Assembly: GCA_035463335.1 (NCBI GenBank)
Contig: DATHTI010000210.1
Span: 1-31,769, forward strand
DNA: 31,769 nucleotides
Direction: 5' to 3'
DNA from: Pyrinomonadaceae bacterium
GTDB lineage: Bacteria > Acidobacteriota > Blastocatellia > Pyrinomonadales > Pyrinomonadaceae
The translations under genes and the position numbers were made by a program. Below the pieces are notes generated by a model. That model ran no database searches and was not told where the DNA came from. It was given only the letters and a program-made list of their open reading frames with translations. Each line of letters starts with the position of its first letter. Position 1 is the first letter of the stretch. This document shows, piece by piece, positions 435-29,952 of the stretch.

Positions 435-1412
435 TTCGTCTGCCGGTAAATCGAAATCCGCTGGTAGGTCGACCGTAATCGTCCGTTCGCCTTCCGGGGC
501 CAAAATCAGCGACGCGACTACTGACCCAACCAAAACGACGGCGACGAAAACGAGCGAAAACTTTATCGGAATGTGGAACCCGACGATCCCGATGAGCATT
601 TTCACGCCGATAAAGCTGAGCACAATGGCGAGGCCGAACCGTAGATAGCGAAACTTTTCCACCACGCCGGCCAGCAGGAAGTACATCGAGCGCAGACCGA
701 GAATCGCAAAGACGTTCGACGTGTAAACAATGAACGTATTCGTAGTGACCGCAAAAATGGCCGGGATCGAATCGACTGCAAACACGAGGTCGGTCACTTC
801 TACGACCATCAGCACGAGCAACAGCAGGGTGCCGGTGAGTTTACCGTTTTGCCTCGTGAAGAACTTTTCCTCATCATAGTGGCGTGAGATAGGAAAGATA
901 CGCGTGACTAGTCGGATGAGCGGGTTTTGTTCCGGATTGACCTCGATCTCTTCCTGCCGGAACATCTTGATTCCGGTATAAACGAGGAAGGCGCCAAAGA
1001 TGTAGATGATCCAGTGAAAGCGATCGATTAGCGCGGCGCCGACGAAAATCATGGTCAGGCGCATAACGAGTGCGCCCATCACGCCCCAGAAGAGTACGCG
1101 GTGCTGAAACTTCGCCGGGACTTTGAAGTAAGAAAAGATCAGGAGGAAGACGAAAAGGTTATCGACCGAGAGCGATAACTCGATAATGTAGCCCGTGAGA
1201 AACTCGAAGCCGCGCTCAGATGTCTGATAGTAAAAAACGACACCGGCGAAAATCATCGCCAGCGTCACCCAGACGGCGCTCCAGAGCCACGCTTCCCGGT
1301 ATTTGATCGTGTGGGCTTTGCGGTTGAAGAGCCCCAGATCGAGGCTCAGCATCGCGAGAATAAATAAACTGAATGCGATCCACAGCCATGTTGAGCCGCC
1401 AAGTGCGTCCAT
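432..1412 (-). CDS. terC: TerC/Alx family integral membrane protein (putative Mn2+/metal homeostasis)
   Basis: Multiple TM helices with TerC motifs ELSLSVDNLFVF, VLFWGVMGALVMR, VEVTDLVFAVDSIPAIFAVT and YTSNVFAILGLRSMYF. Start placed at MDALGG (1412) rather than 1451. Confidence 0.9.
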   Translation of the reverse strand: MDALGGSTWLWIAFSLFILAMLSLDLGLFNRKAHTIKYREAWLWSAVWVTLAMIFAGVVFYYQTSERGFEFLTGYIIELSLSVDNLFVFLLIFSYFKVPAKFQHRVLFWGVMGALVMRLTMIFVGAALIDRFHWIIYIFGAFLVYTGIKMFRQEEIEVNPEQNPLIRLVTRIFPISRHYDEEKFFTRQNGKLTGTLLLLVLMVVEVTDLVFAVDSIPAIFAVTTNTFIVYTSNVFAILGLRSMYFLLAGVVEKFRYLRFGLAIVLSFIGVKMLIGIVGFHIPIKFSLVFVAVVLVGSVVASLILAPEGERTITVDLPADFDLPADE

Positions 1413-1560
1413 GAAGTGGATTAAAATAGCATCTGGTCCGTATTCCGGCAAAGCATGGTAGCCGCGTCCATCCGCGGCTTTGATGTCTTCAGCACCAGCG
1501 CCCCGCTACCGCCCTCGGGTCGGTTGTTGTACAATCCGCAGTTTCTGAAAGGTAACAACA

Positions 1561-3573
1561 ATGCTCAAACAACTCGCCCGATGGGAACGAACCAGCAAAT
1601 ACGTCGTCATAATATTTGCAGTCCTGATGGCCGTCAGCCTTGTGATTTTCTATGCCCCGAGCCGCTCCGCAAGTAACATCGATCCCACCAGAAACACGGA
1701 AGTGGTAGCGAAAGTGGGTTCGGCCAGCATCACCGTCGCTGACGTCGCGCGCATCCGCGAAAACTACGCGCAGATGTTCGGCAACCGCATCAACCTGGCC
1801 CAGCTTGGCGGCAATAAGCGCTTTCTCGAGGGCCTGATCAGCAAGCAGGTGATTGCTCAGGAGGCCGCGCGCCTCGGCCTCGGCGCCAGCGATGCCGAGC
1901 TCGCCGAGAAGATTCGCAAACAGTTTTCCGATGCGTCCGGAAACTTCATCGGCTTCGAACGGTACAAAGAGTCGGTGACGCAACGCTACGGCGACATCGA
2001 GAAGTTTGAGAACGATATACGCGACGAGATTGCGCAGGAAAAACTCCGCGCGTTCGTCAGTGCCAGCGTCAACGTTTCCGACGCTGAAATCGAAGAAGAA
2101 TATAAACGACGCAACAGTTCTTTCGACGTGAGCTACGTGGCTCTTTCGACCGATAAGCTCGCGACGAAGATTCAGCCGAGCGACGAGGAGCTGCGCAGTT
2201 ATTACGAGAGTCACAAGACTGACTATCGTTATCTCGAGCCGCAAAGAAAAGTTCGCTACGTCTTTGTCAATACGGAAAAGGTCGGCTCGAAGCTTCAAAT
2301 TCCCGAGTCGGAGCTGAAGGCGGAATACGACAGTCTCGATCCGAAGTTCAAGGAAGCAGGCGTAGAGATCCAGCAGATTCTTTTGAAAGTGGCGCGGAAG
2401 GATCTCGATGCGCAGGTTGAGCAAAAAACGAAGGACCTCATTACCAAGTTACGCGGCACGACTGGCCAGGCCACGAAAGAAGCATTTGCGGAAGTTGCCA
2501 GAGGAAACTCCGAAGATCCGGAGACCGCGCGAAACGGTGGATTTCTCCTGAAGCCGTTCAAGAAAAACGAAAGCAAACCTCACAGTCTTTACGATCGAGT
2601 TGTTGACATGCAGCCCGGCGACGTTACCGACGTTCCCATTCGTTACGCCGGAAACTTTTACATCCTGCGTCGCGGCGAAAGCGTGCCGAAGACCCTGGCA
2701 GAAGCAAAGCCTGACATCCTCGTCTCATTGCGTAACCGCAAGGCGTATGGCGAAGCATTCAAGCTGGCGCAGAAGGCCCACACGCGTTTACAGGAAACCA
2801 AAGACCCACAAAAAGTTGCGCAGGAGCTTGCCGCACAAGCCAACATGACTCCGGCTGAGATGGTGCGCGAAACGCCGTTCGTGAAGCCCGGCGATGACGT
2901 GCCTGAGATCGGAGCCAATCAGAGCTTTGAGCAGGCGCTCGAGGCGTTGAACAACCCGAATGACGTTGGCGAAGCGACGGGTATCAAGGGCGGCTTTGCG
3001 ATTCCGATGCTGGTTGAAAAGAAAGAGCCGCGCATTCCTGATTTCGACGAAGTAAAGACGAAGGTGGCTGAGGAGATCAAGAACGAGCGGGCGAAGGAAC
3101 AGTTAGAACAGAAAGCCAAAGACCTCGTGGCGGGTCTGACTGGGGCTGACGCGATCAAGGCGGCCGGTGAGAAAGAAGGTTACGACGCCGCCACGGAAGA
3201 GTCGTTCAAACTCGGCTCATCGCTCGGCAAAGCAGGCTCGAGCGCGGCGCTCGATGATCTTATTTACAGTTTGAAGGCGGGCGAGTTCAGTAAGACACCG
3301 ATCAAAGTGGAGGACAAGTGGGTGATTGTCGGTGTCACGAAGAGAAACGACGCTGACATGAATGGACTTGCCGCACAACGCGATACGTTGAAGCAGTCGC
3401 TGCTGGGCGAACGGCAGGACCAGGTGTTTGACGATTACATCACGGGCGTGCAGCAGCGCATGAAGCAGGACGGCAAGATCAAGATCTACGAAGAGGTCCT
3501 GGCGCAACTGGAAGAGGCAGAACCAGCAGCCGAGCCCGGCCTGCCTCCAGGTCTGAATTTCCCAACAAAATAA
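1561..3573 (+). CDS. PpiD/SurA-like membrane-anchored periplasmic chaperone / peptidyl-prolyl isomerase
   Basis: N-terminal TM anchor, SurA N-terminal-like region (VAKVGSASITV; QEAARLGLGASDAELAEKIR), parvulin-like segment FAEVARGNSEDPETARNGG, 670 aa PpiD-like architecture. Confidence 0.85.
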   Translation: MLKQLARWERTSKYVVIIFAVLMAVSLVIFYAPSRSASNIDPTRNTEVVAKVGSASITVADVARIRENYAQMFGNRINLAQLGGNKRFLEGLISKQVIAQEAARLGLGASDAELAEKIRKQFSDASGNFIGFERYKESVTQRYGDIEKFENDIRDEIAQEKLRAFVSASVNVSDAEIEEEYKRRNSSFDVSYVALSTDKLATKIQPSDEELRSYYESHKTDYRYLEPQRKVRYVFVNTEKVGSKLQIPESELKAEYDSLDPKFKEAGVEIQQILLKVARKDLDAQVEQKTKDLITKLRGTTGQATKEAFAEVARGNSEDPETARNGGFLLKPFKKNESKPHSLYDRVVDMQPGDVTDVPIRYAGNFYILRRGESVPKTLAEAKPDILVSLRNRKAYGEAFKLAQKAHTRLQETKDPQKVAQELAAQANMTPAEMVRETPFVKPGDDVPEIGANQSFEQALEALNNPNDVGEATGIKGGFAIPMLVEKKEPRIPDFDEVKTKVAEEIKNERAKEQLEQKAKDLVAGLTGADAIKAAGEKEGYDAATEESFKLGSSLGKAGSSAALDDLIYSLKAGEFSKTPIKVEDKWVIVGVTKRNDADMNGLAAQRDTLKQSLLGERQDQVFDDYITGVQQRMKQDGKIKIYEEVLAQLEEAEPAAEPGLPPGLNFPTK

Positions 3574-3592
3574 TCCGCGTAATCTGTGGTTA
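3572..3592. repeat. Family B repeat, single arm between convergent genes
   Basis: AATCCGCGTAATCTGTGGTTA (reverse complement TAACCACAGATTACGCGGATT). Confidence 0.8.
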
Positions 3593-4597
3593 ATTGCCAA
3601 GCAGTGGTCCAACCTCAGCCTGGGCCACGCTGGTTCTGATCTGCAGCTCGTTTGCGTCCGCAACGATCTTCAGGTTCGACAACGCGCTCTTCGCCAGCAC
3701 CCCTTTCGCTCCAGACAAGCGTCCCACGAAGAACGAGCCAAACTGTTTCAATCCTTCAAGCGTATCGCCAAAATTCTTCGCGGCCTGCGCGTTCACTGCG
3801 CGAGCGGCGATGAACAACTGTAGATCCGTTTCCGTCGTGCCGACCGAGCCGTAAACCTGTCGCAACGATTTCAAGTCAGCGCCAATCGGAGCGTTGCCGA
3901 TGTCGAAATTGTCAACCAGTTGTTCGGTGATGTTGCTGCCGAATCCGATGACGGCATTGGGATCACGACTGGCGAGTGCGATCAGCTCGGCATTCGGTTT
4001 TTTGCGCGAACGACCGGCATCGATCACGCTTCGCACACCCGCTGGATCTCCGAGCGCCAATATGTTCGTGTCGAGCGGCGCGGCAGCGAGCTCACCGATT
4101 CTCACGTCGAATAGACCAAGCAGTTTTAAGTTTTCATCGACTGTAAAGATGTAGATGGTCTTGTCCTGATATTTTTCTTCACGATACTTCCCGTTCGAAG
4201 CAACTCGCCCGGCGGCGACCATGGCCGCTGCGCTGAAGGTTCCATTTGCGAGAGCCACAGTCTGCACCCTGGTCACACCTTCGGACGGATAAGTAAAACG
4301 AACACCGAGTGCGAGGTCCTGAAACATGCGCGGGTCGAGGCCGGTGCGATCCTTGAAGCGATCGATACTCGCGTTGACTTCGCTGAGCTTGGCGGGATTG
4401 CCGGCGAGCATGCGCGGCATCGCTTCGCTCAAAAGTTGTTTCACTTTCACCTGCGCCACCGCATCAGACTGCGGCAATGAAGACATCAGCGTCGAAGCGG
4501 GTTGCGCCGTGCTGCGACCACGCGTTTGCGCGCGAGCTTCAAGTTGGGAAAAAAGTGCGACAAAAACAATCGCAAGTGTCAAAAATCGTGTTTTCAC
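3590..4597 (-). CDS. Secreted hypothetical protein (335 aa)
   Basis: GTG start, Sec signal peptide (MKTRFLTLAIVFVALFSQLEARA), long clean ORF co-oriented with the upstream lipoprotein and thiolase genes. Confidence 0.75.
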   Translation of the reverse strand: MKTRFLTLAIVFVALFSQLEARAQTRGRSTAQPASTLMSSLPQSDAVAQVKVKQLLSEAMPRMLAGNPAKLSEVNASIDRFKDRTGLDPRMFQDLALGVRFTYPSEGVTRVQTVALANGTFSAAAMVAAGRVASNGKYREEKYQDKTIYIFTVDENLKLLGLFDVRIGELAAAPLDTNILALGDPAGVRSVIDAGRSRKKPNAELIALASRDPNAVIGFGSNITEQLVDNFDIGNAPIGADLKSLRQVYGSVGTTETDLQLFIAARAVNAQAAKNFGDTLEGLKQFGSFFVGRLSGAKGVLAKSALSNLKIVADANELQIRTSVAQAEVGPLLGN

Positions 4598-6596: not shown

Positions 6597-6625
6597 GCCA
6601 CAAAAAGGCACAAATTCACAAAAAG
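6597..6625. repeat. Family A repeat, single arm
   Basis: GCCACAAAAAGGCACAAATTCACAAAAAG in the divergent intergenic region. Confidence 0.8.
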
Positions 6626-6639
6626 CAAGCTACCTCACG

Positions 6640-8172
6640 ATGCTTCGAAGCCTCACATCGCCGGCACAAGTTGATTCTGCGTACCACGAGATCGTCGCGC
6701 TTTTGCGTGAGTATGCGGAGTGGCTGTTTGTGTCTGACGGTGTCGCTCAGTCGCTGCGCAGGGATGAGATCGATGTCGTAGTTATACAGGAGCGACTGAT
6801 GTTTTCCTGTTGGACCGAGAAGGGCACGAGGCTCTGGCGCGTCGCTGCGTGGGAGTGGAATGGACAGTTACTCGAGCTCGAAGTCTCACGCAAGCTGCGG
6901 GCTGAAGTCTCGTTGATTCAGTTGATCCCGCGGACCGCAGCGAAGGCGATAACGGCGACGATTCGTGTAGCGCGTCAAGTCCGGTGCGAGAGACTCGGAC
7001 AGCTTGCAGCAGCGCAGCAATTCGGCAGCGTTGTCGAGCGGTTGTCGCTGAGTCGCGGGACGAAGCCGGGACAGCCGGGACGTTACGCGCAGGTTCTTTT
7101 GAAAACGCGACGAGCGCGTATCGCGGTCACGGGTCCGGTTGTATCCGGCCAGCCTTCGGCAGTTGACGCATTTCTGTCGTCGTCGTTGCTGTGGTTTCGT
7201 CGCACGTGCGATCGTGTGAAGCCGCCTTATGTCGAGCAGCTCTGGTTGATCGTTTCGCCTGATCTGCTCAAGCCGCTGCTATACCGCGTTGCGCTCTTGC
7301 GCAGCAGTTTGAGAGACGTCATCAAGGTGTTCACGGTTGATGAAAATCTCATGGTGTTGACTGAGGCGTCCTGTCCTGACAAGGACGATCTCTGGCGCAA
7401 AAAGCTGGCGCGATTTCCACCGGTTGCGGCTGCGACCGCGACTGAGCTCAGTCTCGCGATCGTTGCTGAAGCGCCCGAGGCGATCGATATAGTGCATTCG
7501 CGTCACGGTGAGACACTGCGTTATTTCGGTCTTCCATTTGCGCGCGTCCGCTCGTTGCTCGGAAACGAGAAGGTATGGTTCGGCATCAACCGCGCCCATC
7601 GTCGCTTACTCGACGAGTCAACCATCAACGATTGGACCAACCTGCTTTGTGATTTGCGCGAGCATCGCTCGGCATCAGCCCTCGATCACCGGCATGCGTT
7701 TTATCGTGCGGCACCGGAAGCGTGGCTGGAGTCGTTGTTGCGTCGCGACATAACCAAACTCGATCCGGGTTTGATCATCGCGCCACTGCACGCACAGTTT
7801 CGTACCGCACGCGGCGCGAAACTCGGCATCAGGCCCATCGACCTGCTGGCCCTGCGACAGGATGGCCGACTGGTTGTAATCGAATTAAAAGTTTCGGAAG
7901 ATCGCGAGCACGTTTTGCAGGGCGCCGATTACTGGCGGCGCGTCGAGGCACATCGCCGTCGCGGCCACATCGCGCGCGCAAACCTCTTCGGCGCGCGCGC
8001 GATCAGAGACGAGGCGCCACTCGTCTATCTCGTGGCGCCCACCCTGCGCGTCCATCCTGCATTTCCGACCCTGGCCCAATGCATCTCGTCCGGCATCGAG
8101 ATCTATCGCTTCGACATCAACGAAGACTGGCGAAGGGGCGTCCGCGTCATGCGCCGCCAAAGAGTTAATTAG
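6640..8172 (+). CDS. Hypothetical protein with a C-terminal PD-(D/E)xK (NucS/EndoMS-like) nuclease motif
   Basis: C-terminal IDLLALRQDGRLVVIELK...LQGADYW matches the D...ExK...Q..Y pattern of NucS-like nucleases. The N-terminal ~350 aa are unrecognised. Confidence 0.6.
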   Translation: MLRSLTSPAQVDSAYHEIVALLREYAEWLFVSDGVAQSLRRDEIDVVVIQERLMFSCWTEKGTRLWRVAAWEWNGQLLELEVSRKLRAEVSLIQLIPRTAAKAITATIRVARQVRCERLGQLAAAQQFGSVVERLSLSRGTKPGQPGRYAQVLLKTRRARIAVTGPVVSGQPSAVDAFLSSSLLWFRRTCDRVKPPYVEQLWLIVSPDLLKPLLYRVALLRSSLRDVIKVFTVDENLMVLTEASCPDKDDLWRKKLARFPPVAAATATELSLAIVAEAPEAIDIVHSRHGETLRYFGLPFARVRSLLGNEKVWFGINRAHRRLLDESTINDWTNLLCDLREHRSASALDHRHAFYRAAPEAWLESLLRRDITKLDPGLIIAPLHAQFRTARGAKLGIRPIDLLALRQDGRLVVIELKVSEDREHVLQGADYWRRVEAHRRRGHIARANLFGARAIRDEAPLVYLVAPTLRVHPAFPTLAQCISSGIEIYRFDINEDWRRGVRVMRRQRVN

Positions 8173-8276
8173 CCACAAAAAGGCACAAAAAGCACATAAG
8201 CCGAAATAAGAAGCGTCCAGTATCTATTGAGCGCCTTCTCTTTTCAGCTTATGTGCTTTTTGTGCCTTTTTGTGGC
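8172..8276. repeat. Family A palindromic element: perfect 30-bp inverted arms, 45-bp spacer
   Basis: GCCACAAAAAGGCACAAAAAGCACATAAGC (8172-8201) and its exact reverse complement (8247-8276), between convergent genes. It could also act as a bidirectional terminator. Confidence 0.95.
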
Positions 8277-12200: not shown

Positions 12201-13106
12201 ATGCCGAAAATCGGTTTTCATGCTCCGATCAAAGGCGGAGTTCACAATGCGCTGATCGTCGCGAAGGATACGGGTTGCGACACGGTCCAACTCTTCTCGC
12301 GCAACCCTCGCGGCTGGATGGCAAAGCCGTTGACCGTCGAAGACGTGCTCCTGTTTCGCAAGACGCGCAAGCAAACAAAGATCTCGCCGGTACTAATCCA
12401 CTGCAATTACCTCGTTAATCTCGCCGCCGTCGATGATGTGTTTCTACAGAAGTCGCGCGCATCGTTTCGCGAAGAAGTCGAGCGAGCGCTGTTGCTGGAC
12501 GCGGATTATCTCGTAGTGCATCCGGGGAGTGCGCGTGGCGCGTGTGAAGCTGATGGCATCGGATTGTGCGCGGCGAGTTTGCAGATCGCGTGCAAGGGAT
12601 TGAAATTTGGCAAACTCAAAATCCTCCTGGAAAACACTGCCGGGCAAGGCGACTGCATCGGTCATCGTTTCGAGCATCTTCAGGAGATCATTCGTGTTTG
12701 CCCCAAGCTTCCGCTCGGTGTTTGTCTCGACACGGCGCACGCCTTCACGGCCGGCTACGACATTCGCGAAGAAGACGGTCTCGAGGCGCTGCTGCAAAGA
12801 GTGCAAAAGACAGTAAAGACTAAAAACGTCCACGCGATTCATTTCAACGATTCGCGCGCTGCGTACAACTCGCGTGTCGATCGACACTGGCACATCGGCG
12901 AAGGCCACATCGGCGCCGACGCTCTCCGCCGCGTCGCTCGTCACCCGAAACTGAAACACGCGGCCTTCATCCTCGAAACCCCCTACGACGATCCCCGCGC
13001 CGATCTCAAAAACCTCGCCATGCTCCGATCGTTTGTTGAGCCACAAAAAGGCACAAAAATATTGAGGCCACAAAAAGGCACAAAAAACACAAAACGGAAA
13101 ACCTGA
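12201..13106 (+). CDS. nfo: Endonuclease IV (AP endonuclease family 2)
   Basis: QLFSRNPRGW, VVHPGS, LENTAGQG, CLDTAH, HFNDS, RVDRH, ILETP (trinuclear Zn ligands). The C-terminal ~21 aa derive from a repeat. Confidence 0.95.
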   Translation: MPKIGFHAPIKGGVHNALIVAKDTGCDTVQLFSRNPRGWMAKPLTVEDVLLFRKTRKQTKISPVLIHCNYLVNLAAVDDVFLQKSRASFREEVERALLLDADYLVVHPGSARGACEADGIGLCAASLQIACKGLKFGKLKILLENTAGQGDCIGHRFEHLQEIIRVCPKLPLGVCLDTAHAFTAGYDIREEDGLEALLQRVQKTVKTKNVHAIHFNDSRAAYNSRVDRHWHIGEGHIGADALRRVARHPKLKHAAFILETPYDDPRADLKNLAMLRSFVEPQKGTKILRPQKGTKNTKRKT

Positions 13107-13142
13107 CAAAAATCATTTTGTGCTTTTTGTGCCTTCTGTGGC
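13040..13142. repeat. Family A element: two tandem left arms plus one inverted right arm
   Basis: GCCACAAAAAGGCACAAAAA at 13040 and 13067; TTTTGTGCTTTTTGTGCCTTCTGTGGC ending at 13142. Overlaps the nfo 3' end. Confidence 0.9.
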
Positions 13143-13336
13143 AGAATCCCGCAGTAATGTTTTCGAAGAGACCTTTAACTAATCTCCTCCTAACGGTGCC
13201 GCTTCTGCGCCGCGCCTAGGCGCGTGTTCTCGCGGAGCGGCGATTCCAATACTCAAATCTAAAATTCCCAAACGAAGCTCTCGTAAGGCTTTGTGCGGTT
13301 TACTGAAACGTGTTACGTGTATGATTGGATAACGTT

Positions 13337-26283: not shown

Positions 26284-29070
26284 TCAAAAACTCACCTTCA
26301 TCCCAAATTGAAACTGCCGCGGATCGAATGCGGCTGTCGGTTGTCCAAACCTCGGTAAAGGCTGGACGCCCGAGCCGAACGTGTTGTTCGGTACTCCGAG
26401 ATTCGCGCGGTTCAGGACATTGAAGCCTTCCGCCAGTAGCTGTAAATCGACTCGCTCCGTCAGCCGGATCCTTCGACTCAAACGCAAATCAAGTGACGCG
26501 AAGTCAAACCCGCGTCCTGTATTGCGTCCGACGCCAACCGGTCGATCGTTGAAGTTCGTATCGAAGTTGCGATCGCTTCCCAGCAGCACGTTGAACGGCA
26601 AACGCGACGCGTAGGTGAATATGTAGCCCATCTGAAAACCGCACAGGAAGCGCTGGAACCCGGTGGCTTTGGCGTGTCGCGGCACTTCGAGCGAACCACT
26701 GACCACGAGACGATGGCGCTGGTCGTTGTCGGACAAACCGCGATCGTCGTTTATGTTGAAGCTGTTCTGCACGCTCGAGAAGAAGAAGTTGCCCGCGTCG
26801 TCGATCGTCTTGGAGAGAGTATAGGAGAGACGCAGGCTGGCCCAATGTGTAGGGCGCTGGTTGTAAGAAACAACCATACCGTCGTAGTTCGACTTTCCCG
26901 AGCTCTCGAAGCGCGAGATGTTGCCCCAATTCGAATCGGGCCGGCCCAGATTGGGAATGCCCGCTGAGACCGGAACTGTCGGCACATTCGCATTCCGCGA
27001 AAGGATCAGGTGTAACGCGCGTACGTGCAGGTAACCGACTGACACGACCGCATTGCCCGGAAGCTCACGTTCGACCTGGAAATTCGCCTGCTGGCTGTAA
27101 CTCGATTCGATATTCGGGTCAATGCGCGTGATGTTTGGCTTAGTCGGTAACGTCGCCGGTTGCAACGATAGAATGTTTGGAAACACCGGCGCGCCGGGCT
27201 GCGTGGGCGACAACTGGACCACGATATACTTCGAGCCGTCGCGCTGGAGTGCGTTGGAGGTTGCGCGTAACGGAATGCGATCGTAGTAGAGCCCGAAGCT
27301 GGCGCGAATGACGGTCTTTCGGTTGCCTGGCGCGTAGACGATTCCCACTCGCGGCGAAAGGTTGTCGGTATCAGTCTGGATCGGATCCGGCAGGAACTGT
27401 AGATCGTAACGAAGCCCGGCATTGATCGTGAGATCGGGCCGGACGCGCCATTCATCCTGCGCAAACACGCCCACATTCGGATTCGATTGAAGCTGGCCCG
27501 GCACGCCGAACGCCTGCTGAAAAGTCTGGTAGTTGCCGCTGAGGAAGGTGCTCATCGAGTTGAACTGGTAAACGCCTTCCAGAGCGCCGGGAAAGAAAAT
27601 GTTGACGCGGTTGTAGAGAAAGTTGCCGCCCACTTTCAACGTATGCGCCCCGCGCTGCGTCGAGATGTTGTTTACAGCTTCGAACAGGTTGATATCGCGA
27701 CCCTGCGGCGAGAATGTCGCAATGCCGAGGTTTGCAATTCCGGTGATGTTGATTGCTGGTCCAACCGTGTCATTGACTGGGGAGTCGAGGCGGCTATTTG
27801 TGTATTGAAACCGCGCCTCGTTCAGCGTGTGGGCGTTGAATGTGGTTACGTTGCTGACTTGCACCGTCTGATCCGTGTCGGTCAGGCCCGTGCCGCGGCT
27901 GACAGCGTTGAGTCCGCCCACGTTGCGCGAATTGACGGCATTGATGTGGTAGAGACTGTAACGAGCGCTGAGCTGGTTCCGCGAATTGAGGTTGTGATCG
28001 ACCCGGGCGAAGAAATTGGTGGTGTCGAAACTCGCCGGCACCACGCCGCTGCTGATCAATGGACCGCCATAGTTGATCGCACGCAGGCGATTATTGATAG
28101 GGTTCACTAAAGCCGGATCGATCGTAATAACGGCGGAATAATTTCGACGCGTCTGTTCGAAGTTAGTGAAGAAGAACGTTCGATCGTGCCGAATTGGTCC
28201 GCCGATCGAGCCGCCGTACTGCGCCTGCGTCAGCAGATCTTTTGTCGGCGCGATGGGATTGCGCGCGTCGAAACGCTGGTTACGAAAGAACCCGTATAAG
28301 CCGCCGTGCCAGTCGTTCGTGCCTGACTTCGTCAGAATGTTGACGACGCCGCCTGAAGCCCGGCCAAACTCGGCAATACCGCCGGAAGTCACGACCTGAA
28401 ACTGGTCGATCACTTCCTCGCTGTAGTAAGTGCCCGTGAGGTCGGCCGCGTCATCGTTAGCTGAGACACCGTCGACGATGAAGCTGTTATAGAGATTGCG
28501 CTGGCCGGCGATCGAGATGCCCTGGCCGGGCACGGCCGAAGTCTCGGCGAAGCGCTGGTTGCTTCCGGTGTTGGTTGGTGAAACTCCCGGCACCAGCAGC
28601 GCGAGATCGAGAAAGTTTCGGCCATTCAACGGCAGCTCGTTGATCTCTCGCGGACGGATTGTTTCCGTGATCTGCGTGCGGACTGTTTCGACGATCGGCA
28701 CGTCTGAGCCGATGTTGACCTGCGCTGTAACACCCGCGACATTCAACTTAACCCGTAAATCGAGAGCCTGACCCACCAGAACGGTGAGCTGTCTGGTTAT
28801 CGATTCGAAGCCCTGGGCTTCAAATTTCAGGTCGTAAGCGCCTGTGCGAAGGTAAGGGAAGCGATATCGACCTTCCACGTCGCTTGTGGTTGTTAGTTGG
28901 TGGTTAGTCTCGAGATGCGTGGCCGTCACCGTGACGCCACTCACCATGGCGCCCTGTGTATCTTCGATTCGGCCGCTGAGCGTACCGGATGTGACGCTTT
29001 GCTGTGCTGCACCGAGACCCGAAACAATAAAAACTAAGAGGGCAGCATAAAGATAGATAGGTATTCGCAT
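26284..29070 (-). CDS. TonB-dependent receptor, Oar-like, with N-terminal carboxypeptidase-regulatory-like domain
   Basis: Signal peptide, SGRIEDTQGAMVSGVTVTAT, LPLNGRNFLDLALLVPGV, AEFGRASGGVVNILTKSGTN, FAQDEWRV, C-terminal QFQFGMKVSF. Confidence 0.93.
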   Translation of the reverse strand: MRIPIYLYAALLVFIVSGLGAAQQSVTSGTLSGRIEDTQGAMVSGVTVTATHLETNHQLTTTSDVEGRYRFPYLRTGAYDLKFEAQGFESITRQLTVLVGQALDLRVKLNVAGVTAQVNIGSDVPIVETVRTQITETIRPREINELPLNGRNFLDLALLVPGVSPTNTGSNQRFAETSAVPGQGISIAGQRNLYNSFIVDGVSANDDAADLTGTYYSEEVIDQFQVVTSGGIAEFGRASGGVVNILTKSGTNDWHGGLYGFFRNQRFDARNPIAPTKDLLTQAQYGGSIGGPIRHDRTFFFTNFEQTRRNYSAVITIDPALVNPINNRLRAINYGGPLISSGVVPASFDTTNFFARVDHNLNSRNQLSARYSLYHINAVNSRNVGGLNAVSRGTGLTDTDQTVQVSNVTTFNAHTLNEARFQYTNSRLDSPVNDTVGPAINITGIANLGIATFSPQGRDINLFEAVNNISTQRGAHTLKVGGNFLYNRVNIFFPGALEGVYQFNSMSTFLSGNYQTFQQAFGVPGQLQSNPNVGVFAQDEWRVRPDLTINAGLRYDLQFLPDPIQTDTDNLSPRVGIVYAPGNRKTVIRASFGLYYDRIPLRATSNALQRDGSKYIVVQLSPTQPGAPVFPNILSLQPATLPTKPNITRIDPNIESSYSQQANFQVERELPGNAVVSVGYLHVRALHLILSRNANVPTVPVSAGIPNLGRPDSNWGNISRFESSGKSNYDGMVVSYNQRPTHWASLRLSYTLSKTIDDAGNFFFSSVQNSFNINDDRGLSDNDQRHRLVVSGSLEVPRHAKATGFQRFLCGFQMGYIFTYASRLPFNVLLGSDRNFDTNFNDRPVGVGRNTGRGFDFASLDLRLSRRIRLTERVDLQLLAEGFNVLNRANLGVPNNTFGSGVQPLPRFGQPTAAFDPRQFQFGMKVSF

Positions 29071-29160
29071 GGACTTCTCCGCAAAATGAATGAACGTGCC
29101 TCCGGACTAAGTCGAGTCCTGAGGGCTTGATCAATTAGAGATCTATTCAGCGGAGATGGA
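29068..29160 (-). promoter_or_regulatory. Anti-SD/SD helix coupling the RGPP leader to the TonB receptor start
   Basis: On the mRNA, UCUCCGC (29156-29150, codons just after RGPP) is perfectly complementary to the receptor SD GCGGAGA (29082-29076). An inner GGACU/AGUCC hairpin lies between them. Confidence 0.7.
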
Positions 29161-29694
29161 CGGAGGTCCCCTGGGACTGGCTTGCTCCGAGTTTTCATCT
29201 GACGAAAAAAGGAGCACTTGTTCCTCGTAGAGCGACGCTGTCGTTACTGAGGAATTCTGTTGCCTGTTGGGTTGGACAATGCTTTCGCGTTTTTGCTGTC
29301 GAGTCGCGCTCGCTGCGCAGGACGCGCAATCCATGCGACAGGGCTGACTCAACGCGTTTGATTCAGCACCAGGGTATGAGGAGTTTGTTTCAGCAGTTTG
29401 GCTGTGTGAGTGTGAAGATTCGGCAATGGGTTCGGCAACGATGGTGATTCCATCGGTTTCCATTTCGGCCCCGTGCGAACCACACATCGGCTCCGATTTG
29501 GGTGGCGGGACCTTTTTCGCAGCGATCCCCGATTCGCAATGTCCTGCTGTTTTGCCAACGCAGCAGGGCATCGTGCTCGCCGTATTCAACGAGGCGTTGG
29601 CGACGCGAAACGGTTCAGCAGCCACAAAAAGGCACAGAAAACACAAAACGCCGAGCGAAAAAATCTTGTGCTTTATGTGCTTCTTTGCGGCCAT
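29143..29694 (-). CDS. DUF2946/CruR-like regulatory leader protein with signal peptide, Cys motifs and RGPP arrest motif
   Basis: Signal peptide, PCC...HC, CRMDCASC (includes CxxC), C-terminal SPRGPPSISAE-stop; the stop lies 72 nt upstream of a TonB receptor gene. Confidence 0.75.
   Translation of the reverse strand: MAAKKHIKHKIFSLGVLCFLCLFVAAEPFRVANASLNTASTMPCCVGKTAGHCESGIAAKKVPPPKSEPMCGSHGAEMETDGITIVAEPIAESSHSHSQTAETNSSYPGAESNALSQPCRMDCASCAASATRQQKRESIVQPNRQQNSSVTTASLYEEQVLLFSSDENSEQASPRGPPSISAE
29621..29691. repeat. Family A palindromic element inside the 5' end of the RGPP leader ORF
   Basis: GCCACAAAAAGGCACAGAAAACACAAAA (29621-29648) and the degenerate inverted arm TTGTGCTTTATGTGCTTCTTTGCGGC (29666-29691). 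Confidence 0.85.
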
Positions 29695-29703
29695 TTGAAT
29701 AAC

Positions 29704-29952
29704 CTACTGGGCCGGTTCTTGCGGGACGGGCTTCTTAACGAGTTTCATCTTGCACTTCGGACAAGTACCTCGTTTTTTCGAGGTCACGTCCGCGTGCATG
29801 GGGCAGACATAGTGGAATTTGGTTGGCTTTTTGGGATGCGCCGAGCGTTCCTTCTGTGCTGCGGTAGCGACGGGCACAGAGTACACCTGGGAGCTGGTCA
29901 GAAGCAATGCGGCCGCGAAGAGCGGCACGATCAGCAGCCGTACGAAGTGCAT
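29704..29952 (-). CDS. Secreted heavy-metal-binding domain protein (YxCPMH...CPKCxMxL)
   Basis: YVCPMHADVTSKKRGTCPKCKMKLV after a signal peptide. This is the motif found on CusB/CopA N-termini (HMBD). Confidence 0.88.
   Translation of the reverse strand: MHFVRLLIVPLFAAALLLTSSQVYSVPVATAAQKERSAHPKKPTKFHYVCPMHADVTSKKRGTCPKCKMKLVKKPVPQEPAQ

Follow-up and report, generated by a model that had tools for sequence, protein, structure and literature searches.

What becomes of a palindromic repeat that ends up immediately after a gene's start codon? The question is raised by a leader gene on contig DATHTI010000210.1 (assembly GCA_035463335.1) of a Pyrinomonadaceae bacterium (Acidobacteriota), the full 31,769 nucleotides of which were analyzed and are called the window here. 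The contig belongs to a metagenome-assembled genome of 3.8 Mb that is 88% complete and is labelled G000 in the following. The leader gene encodes a small cysteine-rich protein with an RGPP motif near its C-terminus, and its ATG is followed at once by a copy of a short repeat termed family A. We consider it probable, at roughly 0.78, that this palindrome has been exapted and that it has taken the place of the original n- and h-regions in a Sec-type export signal or membrane anchor of the leader. The parts of the leader gene that matter for this reading are the following:

29143-29694, minus strand: leader open reading frame (ORF), 183 aa, Cys-rich, ending in ...SPRGPPSISAE; a conserved family
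29692-29694, minus strand: ATG start codon, 9 nt past the stop codon of the upstream gene and without a Shine-Dalgarno (SD)-like sequence
29664-29691, minus strand: A-rich arm, codons 2-10 (AAKKHIKHK), the basic n-region; 5/28 mismatches to the family A consensus
29649-29663, minus strand: spacer or loop of 15 nt, codons 11-15 (IFSLG), start of the h-region
29621-29648, minus strand: T-rich arm, codons 16-25 (VLCFLCLFVA), core of the h-region; 2/28 mismatches
29593-29619, minus strand: c-region, codons 26-34 (AEPFRVANA), outside the repeat; its P..A-x-A aligns with the ancestral LxP(I/V)AxAS found in repeat-free homologues

The whole element (29621-29691) is an imperfect palindrome of 28+15+28 nt that begins at the base directly after the ATG, and the N-terminus of the leader reads M-AAKKHIKHK / IFSLG / VLCFLCLFVA / AEPFRVANASL... 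The first-pass annotation, made from the letters of this stretch, had described the ATG as abutting a family A element whose arms read as AAKKHIKHK and as a hydrophobic stretch followed by AE. The same translation was recovered, as was the order of A-rich arm, 15-nt spacer and T-rich arm directly after 29694-29692. An in-frame stop codon is situated 3 codons 5' of the ATG. By inspection, two candidate signal-peptidase sites are apparent, VAA/E after residue 26 and ANA/S after residue 34 (the slash marks the point of cleavage). The palindrome is not an assembly artefact, since the leader region, palindrome included, lies within single contigs of two independent soil-metagenome assemblies; a depth spike of ~100-fold over the better-conserved arm in these assemblies is due to other family A copies. 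In three soil metagenomes, contig depth jumps from ~6-10 to ~900-4400 over the T-rich arm alone (window 29619-29650), which indicates that family A arms are very abundant in those soils.

Family A was defined by an arm consensus of 28 nt, GCCAC-A5-GGCAC-A5-GCAC-A4, and genomes were searched with <=3 mismatches allowed. G000 contains 45 exact arms and 252 within that limit, 126 on each strand, while a reversed-pattern control yielded 0 matches in this genome and also 0 across 61 genomes. The arms are assembled from CAC-A4-5 units and form 144 pairs in G000, with spacers of 2-79 nt and a mode near 14. The repeat is present in 27 of 60 other genomes sampled from the genus, each with a handful to more than 400 arms, and the remainder have 0-1. 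No ORF with 60 codons on either side spans 229 of the 246 G000 sites (93%), so the family is basically extragenic and resembles repetitive extragenic palindromic (REP) elements. Its outer flank in G000 follows the consensus TTA/GCCAC ... GTGGC/TAA (here the slash marks the element boundary), with T 58%, T 69% and A 71% at positions -3 to -1. Further copies reside in the window at 6597, 8172-8276, 12168 and 13040-13143, of which the second served for comparison:

8172-8276, no strand assigned: reference family A copy, 1 mismatch in each arm, 49-nt spacer, untranslated as part of a leader

A search of the window against Rfam reached no family threshold. The sole Y1 transposase gene (IS200/RAYT-type; PF01797) found in the 88% complete genome G000 (C411:352-693, L185) gave no link between family A and a RAYT, its nearest family A arm being 1.2 kb off. 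This gene itself is placed between inverted copies of a different repeat, ..AACGCCGAAGGCGTTCGCTAATTT..CCCAGGGTTC...

Sequence comparison shows that the leader element is derived from this family. It is further from the consensus than typical copies, and the outer flank is absent, with ATG and TGC standing in place of TTA and TAA, consistent with an old copy that has been remodelled as coding sequence. One may object that signal peptides are compositionally simple and that Lys-rich and Phe/Leu-rich codons are naturally complementary, so that the likeness could have arisen by chance or convergence, or one may suppose that family A was born from the signal-peptide sequence of this very gene. We regard both ideas as extremely improbable. 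The arms are identical to the consensus at 26/28 and 23/28 nt in exact inverted geometry, the reversed pattern is absent from all genomes searched, and the same peptide recoded folds far less well. An origin of the family in the leader gene is likewise contradicted by the family's hundreds of copies, for the most part extragenic, across many genomes, some of which possess a leader lacking the repeat, and by the greater divergence of the leader copy. Genomes G016 and G023, for example, carry 65 and 42 family A arms and have repeat-free leaders, which argues against such a birth.

The degeneracy of signal peptides is known, and so is the in-frame insertion of palindromic mobile repeats into genes, with the Rickettsia palindromic elements (RPEs) as an example. 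The composition of family A makes it particularly suited to such a fate. Its A-rich arm is devoid of T and its T-rich arm is devoid of A, which leaves all frames free of stop codons. Translated in its three frames, the consensus A-rich arm gives ATKRHKKHK, PQKGTKSTK and HKKAQKAQ and the T-rich arm FCAFCAFLW, FVLFVPFCG and LCFLCLFV, so that every frame is rich in Lys/Thr/His/Gln first and in Phe/Leu/Cys/Val second. As a palindrome is A-rich and then T-rich on both strands, the order is basic-then-hydrophobic whichever way the element is inserted. The earlier suggestion that any in-frame copy resembles a Sec signal therefore holds in all three frames. In the leader, the n-region MAAKKHIKHK has a net charge of +4, residues 11-26 form an uncharged run of 16, and the best Kyte-Doolittle mean over 12 residues amounts to 2.97, compared to 2.4-2.8 in repeat-free homologues. 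Judged by its sequence, the N-terminus is signal-like and comparable to those of repeat-free homologues. The idea that the element brings its own ATG was rejected, with an in-frame ATG within 12 nt occurring in only 9 of 248 arms.

The leader belongs to a well-conserved family. We found 478 homologues at E values up to 0.01, and nearly all of the best 120 comprise 173-187 aa with 95-100% query coverage. In an alignment of 20 sequences the N-terminal residues G15, L17, C21, F23, A25, E27, P28 and R30 are invariant, as are MxCCVGK, H52-C53, EPMCG, CxxC and PRGPP. DNA was collected for 107 homologous loci. A palindrome of fixed geometry is present in 52 distinct sequences with zero indels over 95 nt, and the arms of the orthologous leaders show 0-8 mismatches to the family A consensus. 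Codon-position entropy was computed on the 44 orthologues with a canonical start (ATG in 42, TTG in 2). In the loop it amounts to 0.21 for position 2 against 1.33 for position 3, and in the T-rich arm to 0.18 and 0.55, respectively. Variation biased towards third positions demonstrates that loop and T-rich arm are translated and subject to purifying selection, and the segment is conserved at the protein level. Changes in the A-rich arm are mostly swaps among K, R, T, H and N that leave it basic, with K/R conserved at positions 5, 8 and 10.

These data also bear on the possibility that the palindrome is merely untranslated 5' leader RNA, that the protein starts downstream, e.g. at Met42, and that the signal-like appearance is an artefact of a stop-free repeat. 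Stop-free read-through into cytoplasmic genes (HAD, SDR, FabZ-like) is indeed common in G000, so an open frame by itself is no evidence of translation, and the canonical ATG lacks an SD sequence. Nevertheless, a start at Met42 appears very improbable. The substitution pattern in loop and T-rich arm is of the coding type. Moreover, a hydrophobic segment precedes M(A/P)CCVGK in all homologues including the repeat-free ones; a protein starting at Met42 would be deprived of this segment common to every homologue, and the window's protein has no other. In-frame starts are kept upstream of the h-region in 52/52 distinct sequences and occur only at or inside the A-rich arm. Even a subgroup without the outer 9 nt of the stem starts at an ATG that has arisen inside the arm (MKHIRHR...). 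We thus infer that translation of the leader begins at the canonical ATG. The orthologue in G010 (L003/L017; G010:C5:442886-443396) is interrupted: it has an in-frame TGA, and beyond residue ~143 the match shifts to another frame, which points to a frameshifted gene or else to an error in the assembly. A 172-nt contig from soil RNA-seq covers the central part of the leader ORF (29264-29432), with 3 differences plus an insertion of 3 nt; such contigs cannot show starts, and this one gives a weak hint that the leader of a close relative is transcribed.

What did the leader look like before the repeat arrived? Three types of N-terminus provide an answer. N-type leaders and outgroups (including G006, G016, G015, G009, G012, G004 and G023) have ordinary N-termini at the same place, in which a basic stretch is followed by an h-region such as ..FVAITIALSFIATLIP.. 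and by a c-region V/I-A-S/G-A-S, with M(A/P)CCVGK some ten residues on. The motif ..ALSFxATLxPxAxAS.. precedes M(A/P)CCVGK in N-type and outgroup leaders alike, and a family A arm was looked for and was undetectable in both. The comparison with orthologous leaders proposed in the first-pass annotation has thus brought to light repeat-free, ordinary hydrophobic signals among the distant homologues. In the R type, comprising the window and 54 further distinct sequences, the palindrome is followed by AEPFRIANAS (..CLFVA-AEPFRIANAS). In the R' type (L026, L107, L108, L112), a repeat-coded MVAKKFIKHK..ALCFLCLFVA is fused directly to (L/I)SFVAPL(L/V)PIA(N/G)AS. By sequence, R' is an intermediate that combines the repeat with the distal half of the ancestral h-region. 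At the codon level R resembles R' minus four codons, from which it follows that the P..A-x-A c-region is ancestral and that the n- and h-regions alone are repeat-derived. The comparison of the three types thereby demonstrates replacement of the ancestral signal. L085 is a truncated sequence that was wrongly typed; rows from G048 (L142, L184) stand among the repeat-free orthologues, and nothing is claimed from G048 or from G054, which contributed no locus.

The same recruitment recurs in other genes of G000. The genome was scanned for T-rich arms in frame with >=80 downstream codons and a start upstream, which gave two kinds of cases. The first are plain 5' untranslated regions of cytoplasmic enzymes (HAD, SDR, FabZ-like) with a clear start past the repeat, and the second are candidates without an alternative signal. 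Among the latter are ten further genes with Pfam-confirmed bodies that carry an in-frame family A copy at the N-terminus as their sole N-terminal hydrophobic segment (loci L114, L118, L119, L121, L122 and L124-L128 on contigs C74, C205, C243, C269, C272, C314, C333, C377, C506 and C522). They encode a sensor kinase with periplasmic propellers, a GH13 amylase, a C13-like peptidase, a DUF4440 protein, a HEAT-repeat protein, a glycoamylase, a CusF-SCO1 lipoprotein, an ABC permease, a staphylococcal-type nuclease and an S9 peptidase. In the ABC permease and the sensor kinase the repeat may be used as the first transmembrane helix.

Four of these genes, those for GH13, CusF-SCO1, the nuclease and glycoamylase, were checked against genus-wide orthologues. 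In each case copy-free orthologues have conventional signal peptides at the aligned position, and the copy-bearing genes are without any other hydrophobic segment. For GH13, G000 and G046 share the N-terminus MHKMHK..FLCFLCLFVA-PFCSAQ, the T-rich arm being free of mismatches; both arms are present in G002, and other species have unrelated normal signals ahead of a shared ..VTKVDPPSWW. CusF-SCO1 of G000 contains both arms in the second frame (MRPQKGTKSTK..LSFLCLFVA) ahead of the lipobox; in G010 and G046 the A-rich arm alone is present as n-region, and the signals of farther species are plain lipoprotein signals of the MKK type. The glycoamylase gene keeps the in-frame palindrome in G000, G044, G042 and G046 across a difference of 27 nt in loop length, the others having normal signals. 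In this gene (L124/L171) TCG is found where the consensus flank TTA/G would create a TAG stop in the PQKGTK frame, and a single change may have opened that frame. The nuclease genes of G000 and G044 have decayed arms, and normal signals are found in the others. Throughout, loop-length differences between species are multiples of 3, and all three reading frames are in use across these genes. A scan for other in-frame copies at gene starts, as suggested for this genome earlier, has therefore returned ten further genes, four of them backed by orthologues, and recurrence of the recruitment is evident from the sequences. Together with the repeat-free signals of distant leaders, the R' intermediate and the coding-type substitutions, these four exported proteins lend support at the sequence level to the earlier proposal that the repeat was exapted as n- and h-regions.

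The palindrome must also be considered at the RNA level, for which the surroundings of the leader are needed:

29704-29952, minus strand: upstream gene for an 82-aa exported heavy-metal-binding-domain (HMBD) protein; Pfam HMBD PF19335, E 4e-13
26284-29070, minus strand: downstream gene for a TonB-dependent receptor with a carboxypeptidase-regulatory-like N-domain; Pfam OMP_b-brl_4, CarboxypepD_reg and Plug
29161-29172, minus strand: RGPP motif of the leader, 7 codons ahead of its stop; P174, R175, G176, P177 and P178 invariant

The receptor gene starts 72 nt past the leader stop. The leader protein itself matched no Pfam family at E values up to 1, and look-alikes in the protein-cluster Atlas are confined to unnamed acidobacterial clusters. 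The sense-strand RNA forms one long stem from +4 to +74 with a minimum free energy (MFE) of -43.6 kcal/mol (121 nt; z -4.2 versus dinucleotide shuffles), consisting of 22 Watson-Crick pairs, 4 G-U pairs and 2 mismatches. An mRNA hairpin right at the start codon, as anticipated in the first-pass annotation, is thus predicted indeed, with -34 kcal/mol for the hairpin. It is conceivable, though rather doubtful in our view, that this hairpin is the selected feature, gating leader translation (for example by coupling it to the upstream HMBD gene) or stabilizing or processing the mRNA, and that the signal-like peptide is a tolerated by-product. Several observations speak for selection on the RNA. 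Codons 2-25 (72 nt) of the orthologues have a median MFE of -32.5 kcal/mol, compared to -18.8 +/- 5.2 for synonymous recodings (median z -2.8) and -17.4 kcal/mol for other windows of the same genes. Cells of the stem are paired to 86.5%, versus 42-60% with slid partners, and double changes occur at pairs 17-83, 36-64 and 40-60. The R-type ATG has no SD sequence. Furthermore, a different palindromic repeat with a CGCAAAG period lies in frame from +4 in the outgroup leaders L004, L024, L025 and L027. In G006 the two arms in the leader (C716:530-591) are the only matches to that family found genome-wide; G016 has 278 arms. N-type leaders (L018, L019, L021, L092 and others) possess a perfect 22-nt palindrome, TGTTTATAGCG/CGCTATAAACA, from +2 that encodes MFIARYKQ.

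On the other hand, the T-rich arm is no less diverse in synonymous codons than the remainder of the gene (2-fold sites 0.52 versus 0.53; >=4-fold sites 1.23 versus 0.89). Pairing still amounts to 85.0% when partners are shuffled among sequences, so that most of it is explained by column conservation. In one subgroup, mentioned above for its start within the arm, the outer 9 nt of the stem are gone, and in the deep outgroups L006, L007, L009, L030 and L032 the hairpin is not significant. As covariation, synonymous diversity and synonymous recoding disagree, selection on structure cannot be shown, and the hairpin from +4 to +74 is most likely a relic held largely intact by coding constraint. Two details of the other palindromes may be added. 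The CGCAAAG-period repeat encodes AKAQRRK..FAPLRLC before the ancestral h-region, with hairpins of -37 to -58 kcal/mol and z values to -9. In the N-type leaders a good SD-like GAAGGA is followed by the ATG and then by the 22-nt palindrome, so that palindromes of three kinds occur at this start codon.

With exaptation as a translated segment as the preferred reading, the question arises whether this segment is a cleaved Sec signal peptide or rather an uncleaved N-in/C-out membrane anchor. The latter is the less likely solution, though one with arguments in its favor. A run of 16 uncharged residues is placed between K10 and the invariant E27-P28-x-R30, the run is extended to 26 residues in R' forms, and both signal peptides and N-terminal anchors have been described in the literature on DUF2946 proteins (PMC9426467). 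A transmembrane helix of 16 residues would be short, however, and the conserved A-x-A/S and V-A-A/E, as candidate sites, would fit the -3/-1 rule. P..A-x-A is retained at the same position in repeat-free homologues, and the signal of CutF undergoes cleavage (PMC9973294). Export and cleavage of the leader are predicted from such features.

We propose the following sequence of events. An old, decayed REP-like family A copy of 71 nt would have come to sit right behind the leader start codon and would now be ordinary coding sequence. The A-rich arm would have turned into the charged n-region, and spacer and T-rich arm into the h-region, followed by the ancestral c-region with its A-x-A site. The segment would target the nascent leader to the Sec/signal recognition particle (SRP) pathway, and, as in CutF- or SecM-like leaders, this targeting could couple export to release of a C-terminal arrest. 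The residual hairpin may tie leader initiation to ribosomes arriving from the upstream gene.

Some findings weigh against this reading. The c-region would be somewhat long if cut at ANA/S. An ATG that lacks an SD sequence and runs immediately into a stable hairpin should hinder independent initiation; the leader may reasonably be supposed to be initiated by ribosomes terminating on the upstream HMBD gene. CruR from Bordetella pertussis, the nearest analogue studied that is encoded upstream of a TonB receptor, did not need its export signal: residues 5-44 were swapped for out-of-frame sequence, and expression and regulation were unaffected (PMC9426467). The first-pass annotation had seen the importance of the exapted signal in a tie between CruR-type regulation and membrane targeting, and this argument is inaccurate. 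The signal-dependent case is CutF from Rhodobacter capsulatus, in which the response was lost or severely weakened when the Sec signal was deleted or exchanged for one of the Tat type (PMC9973294). Finally, the tree of the mature part is poorly resolved, the repeat-bearing leaders do not form one clade, and an approximately unbiased (AU) test rejects their monophyly (p 3e-5; 0.005 when L016 is left unconstrained). Hence one vertical origin does not suffice and is not claimed; recombination or repeated replacement must be invoked. As the junction is identical in all R sequences, the comparison favors one insertion followed by recombination between related lineages, with repeated replacement as the alternative. 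L016 has a mosaic-like appearance, its N-terminus being of the R type while the mature part and the C-terminal tail (WEHVIPRGPPLNLR) are those of the repeat-free N clade (compare L019/L022). Taken together with the AU result, this sequence suggests recombination inside the leader gene.

How does the leader compare to established systems? It shares with CruR and CutF (DUF2946) the make-up of a small Cys-motif protein with a predicted export signal, a C-terminal Pro-rich or R(A/G)PP motif and a metal-related gene just downstream, and with CruR also the downstream TonB-dependent transporter. The invariant C123-x-x-C126 and the likewise invariant R175 are separated by 48 residues (window 29161-29325, minus strand; residues 123-178), close to the 45 residues in CruR, a spacing reported to be conserved in DUF2946 proteins (PMC9426467). 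The leader differs in having no match to Pfam DUF2946 (PF11162), in carrying RGPP instead of RAPP, in its greater length of 183 aa and in its occurrence in Acidobacteriota, and neither CutF nor CruR has a repeat-derived signal. In the absence of a DUF2946 match, we do not file the leader as a member of the CruR/CutF family. RGPP is a documented arrest motif, arrest has been shown for CruR, and small exported proteins with RGPP near the C-terminus upstream of TonB-related genes have been described as a candidate class of arrest peptides (PMC12992588). Like the RAPP/RGPP arrest peptides (ApdA, ApdP, SecM-like; PMC12992588), the leader has fewer than 300 aa, RGPP near the C-terminus, a predicted localization signal and a co-directional downstream gene, and by analogy arrest may occur here as well. 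The present finding, unlike that work, concerns the origin of the N-terminal signal and not the arrest motif.

Among repeats, the closest parallels are RPEs and intragenic insertions similar to MITEs (miniature transposable elements with inverted repeats) or REPs (ERIC, BOX; PMC10969869), which are likewise stop-free, in frame, translated and kept. As with RPEs, many unrelated genes of one genome are hit, and the leader copy is kept as a peptide among orthologues. RPEs, however, are ~150 bp long, reside inside mature proteins and have no assigned role, whereas family A occupies the extreme N-terminus, where it replaces n- and h-regions in all three frames. With REP elements that have a RAYT, family A has in common that it is a short imperfect palindrome in hundreds of copies, mostly extragenic, patchy among relatives and provided with a conserved flank (TTA/GCCAC); it differs in that another repeat borders the one Y1-transposase gene found in G000. 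PARCELs resemble it as dyad-symmetric coding DNA giving rise to membrane-associated peptide segments, but these are tandem 25-residue domains in surface proteins of Mollicutes and others and not dispersed extragenic repeats recruited as signals. Within the full-text literature searched, no report of a REP-, MITE- or repeat-derived signal peptide was found. The new aspect, well supported by the sequence data, is that translated palindromic repeats would act as N-terminal targeting signals.

It is tempting to go further and to regard family A, and perhaps other T-less/A-less palindromes, as ready-made signal cassettes that have repeatedly overwritten the N-termini of exported proteins and that in addition provide a start-proximal hairpin, recruited three times from three palindromes to gate leader translation and to make it rely on ribosomes coming from the upstream metal-binding gene. 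We put this forward as a tentative extension that is more likely wrong than right. More generally, a stop-free palindrome would come pre-adapted as an export signal, whatever its frame or orientation, and selfish repeats would thus have a concrete, testable path to create or renew targeting signals. In G000, the data show ancestral signals replaced in a regulatory leader and in at least 4 enzymes or chaperones. Annotation of such genomes calls for caution, as the calling of starts 5' of such repeats can easily err in either direction. In the case of the leader, our findings define what to mutate in order to address a coupling of export to RGPP-mediated arrest, with the R, R' and N types at hand as natural variants.

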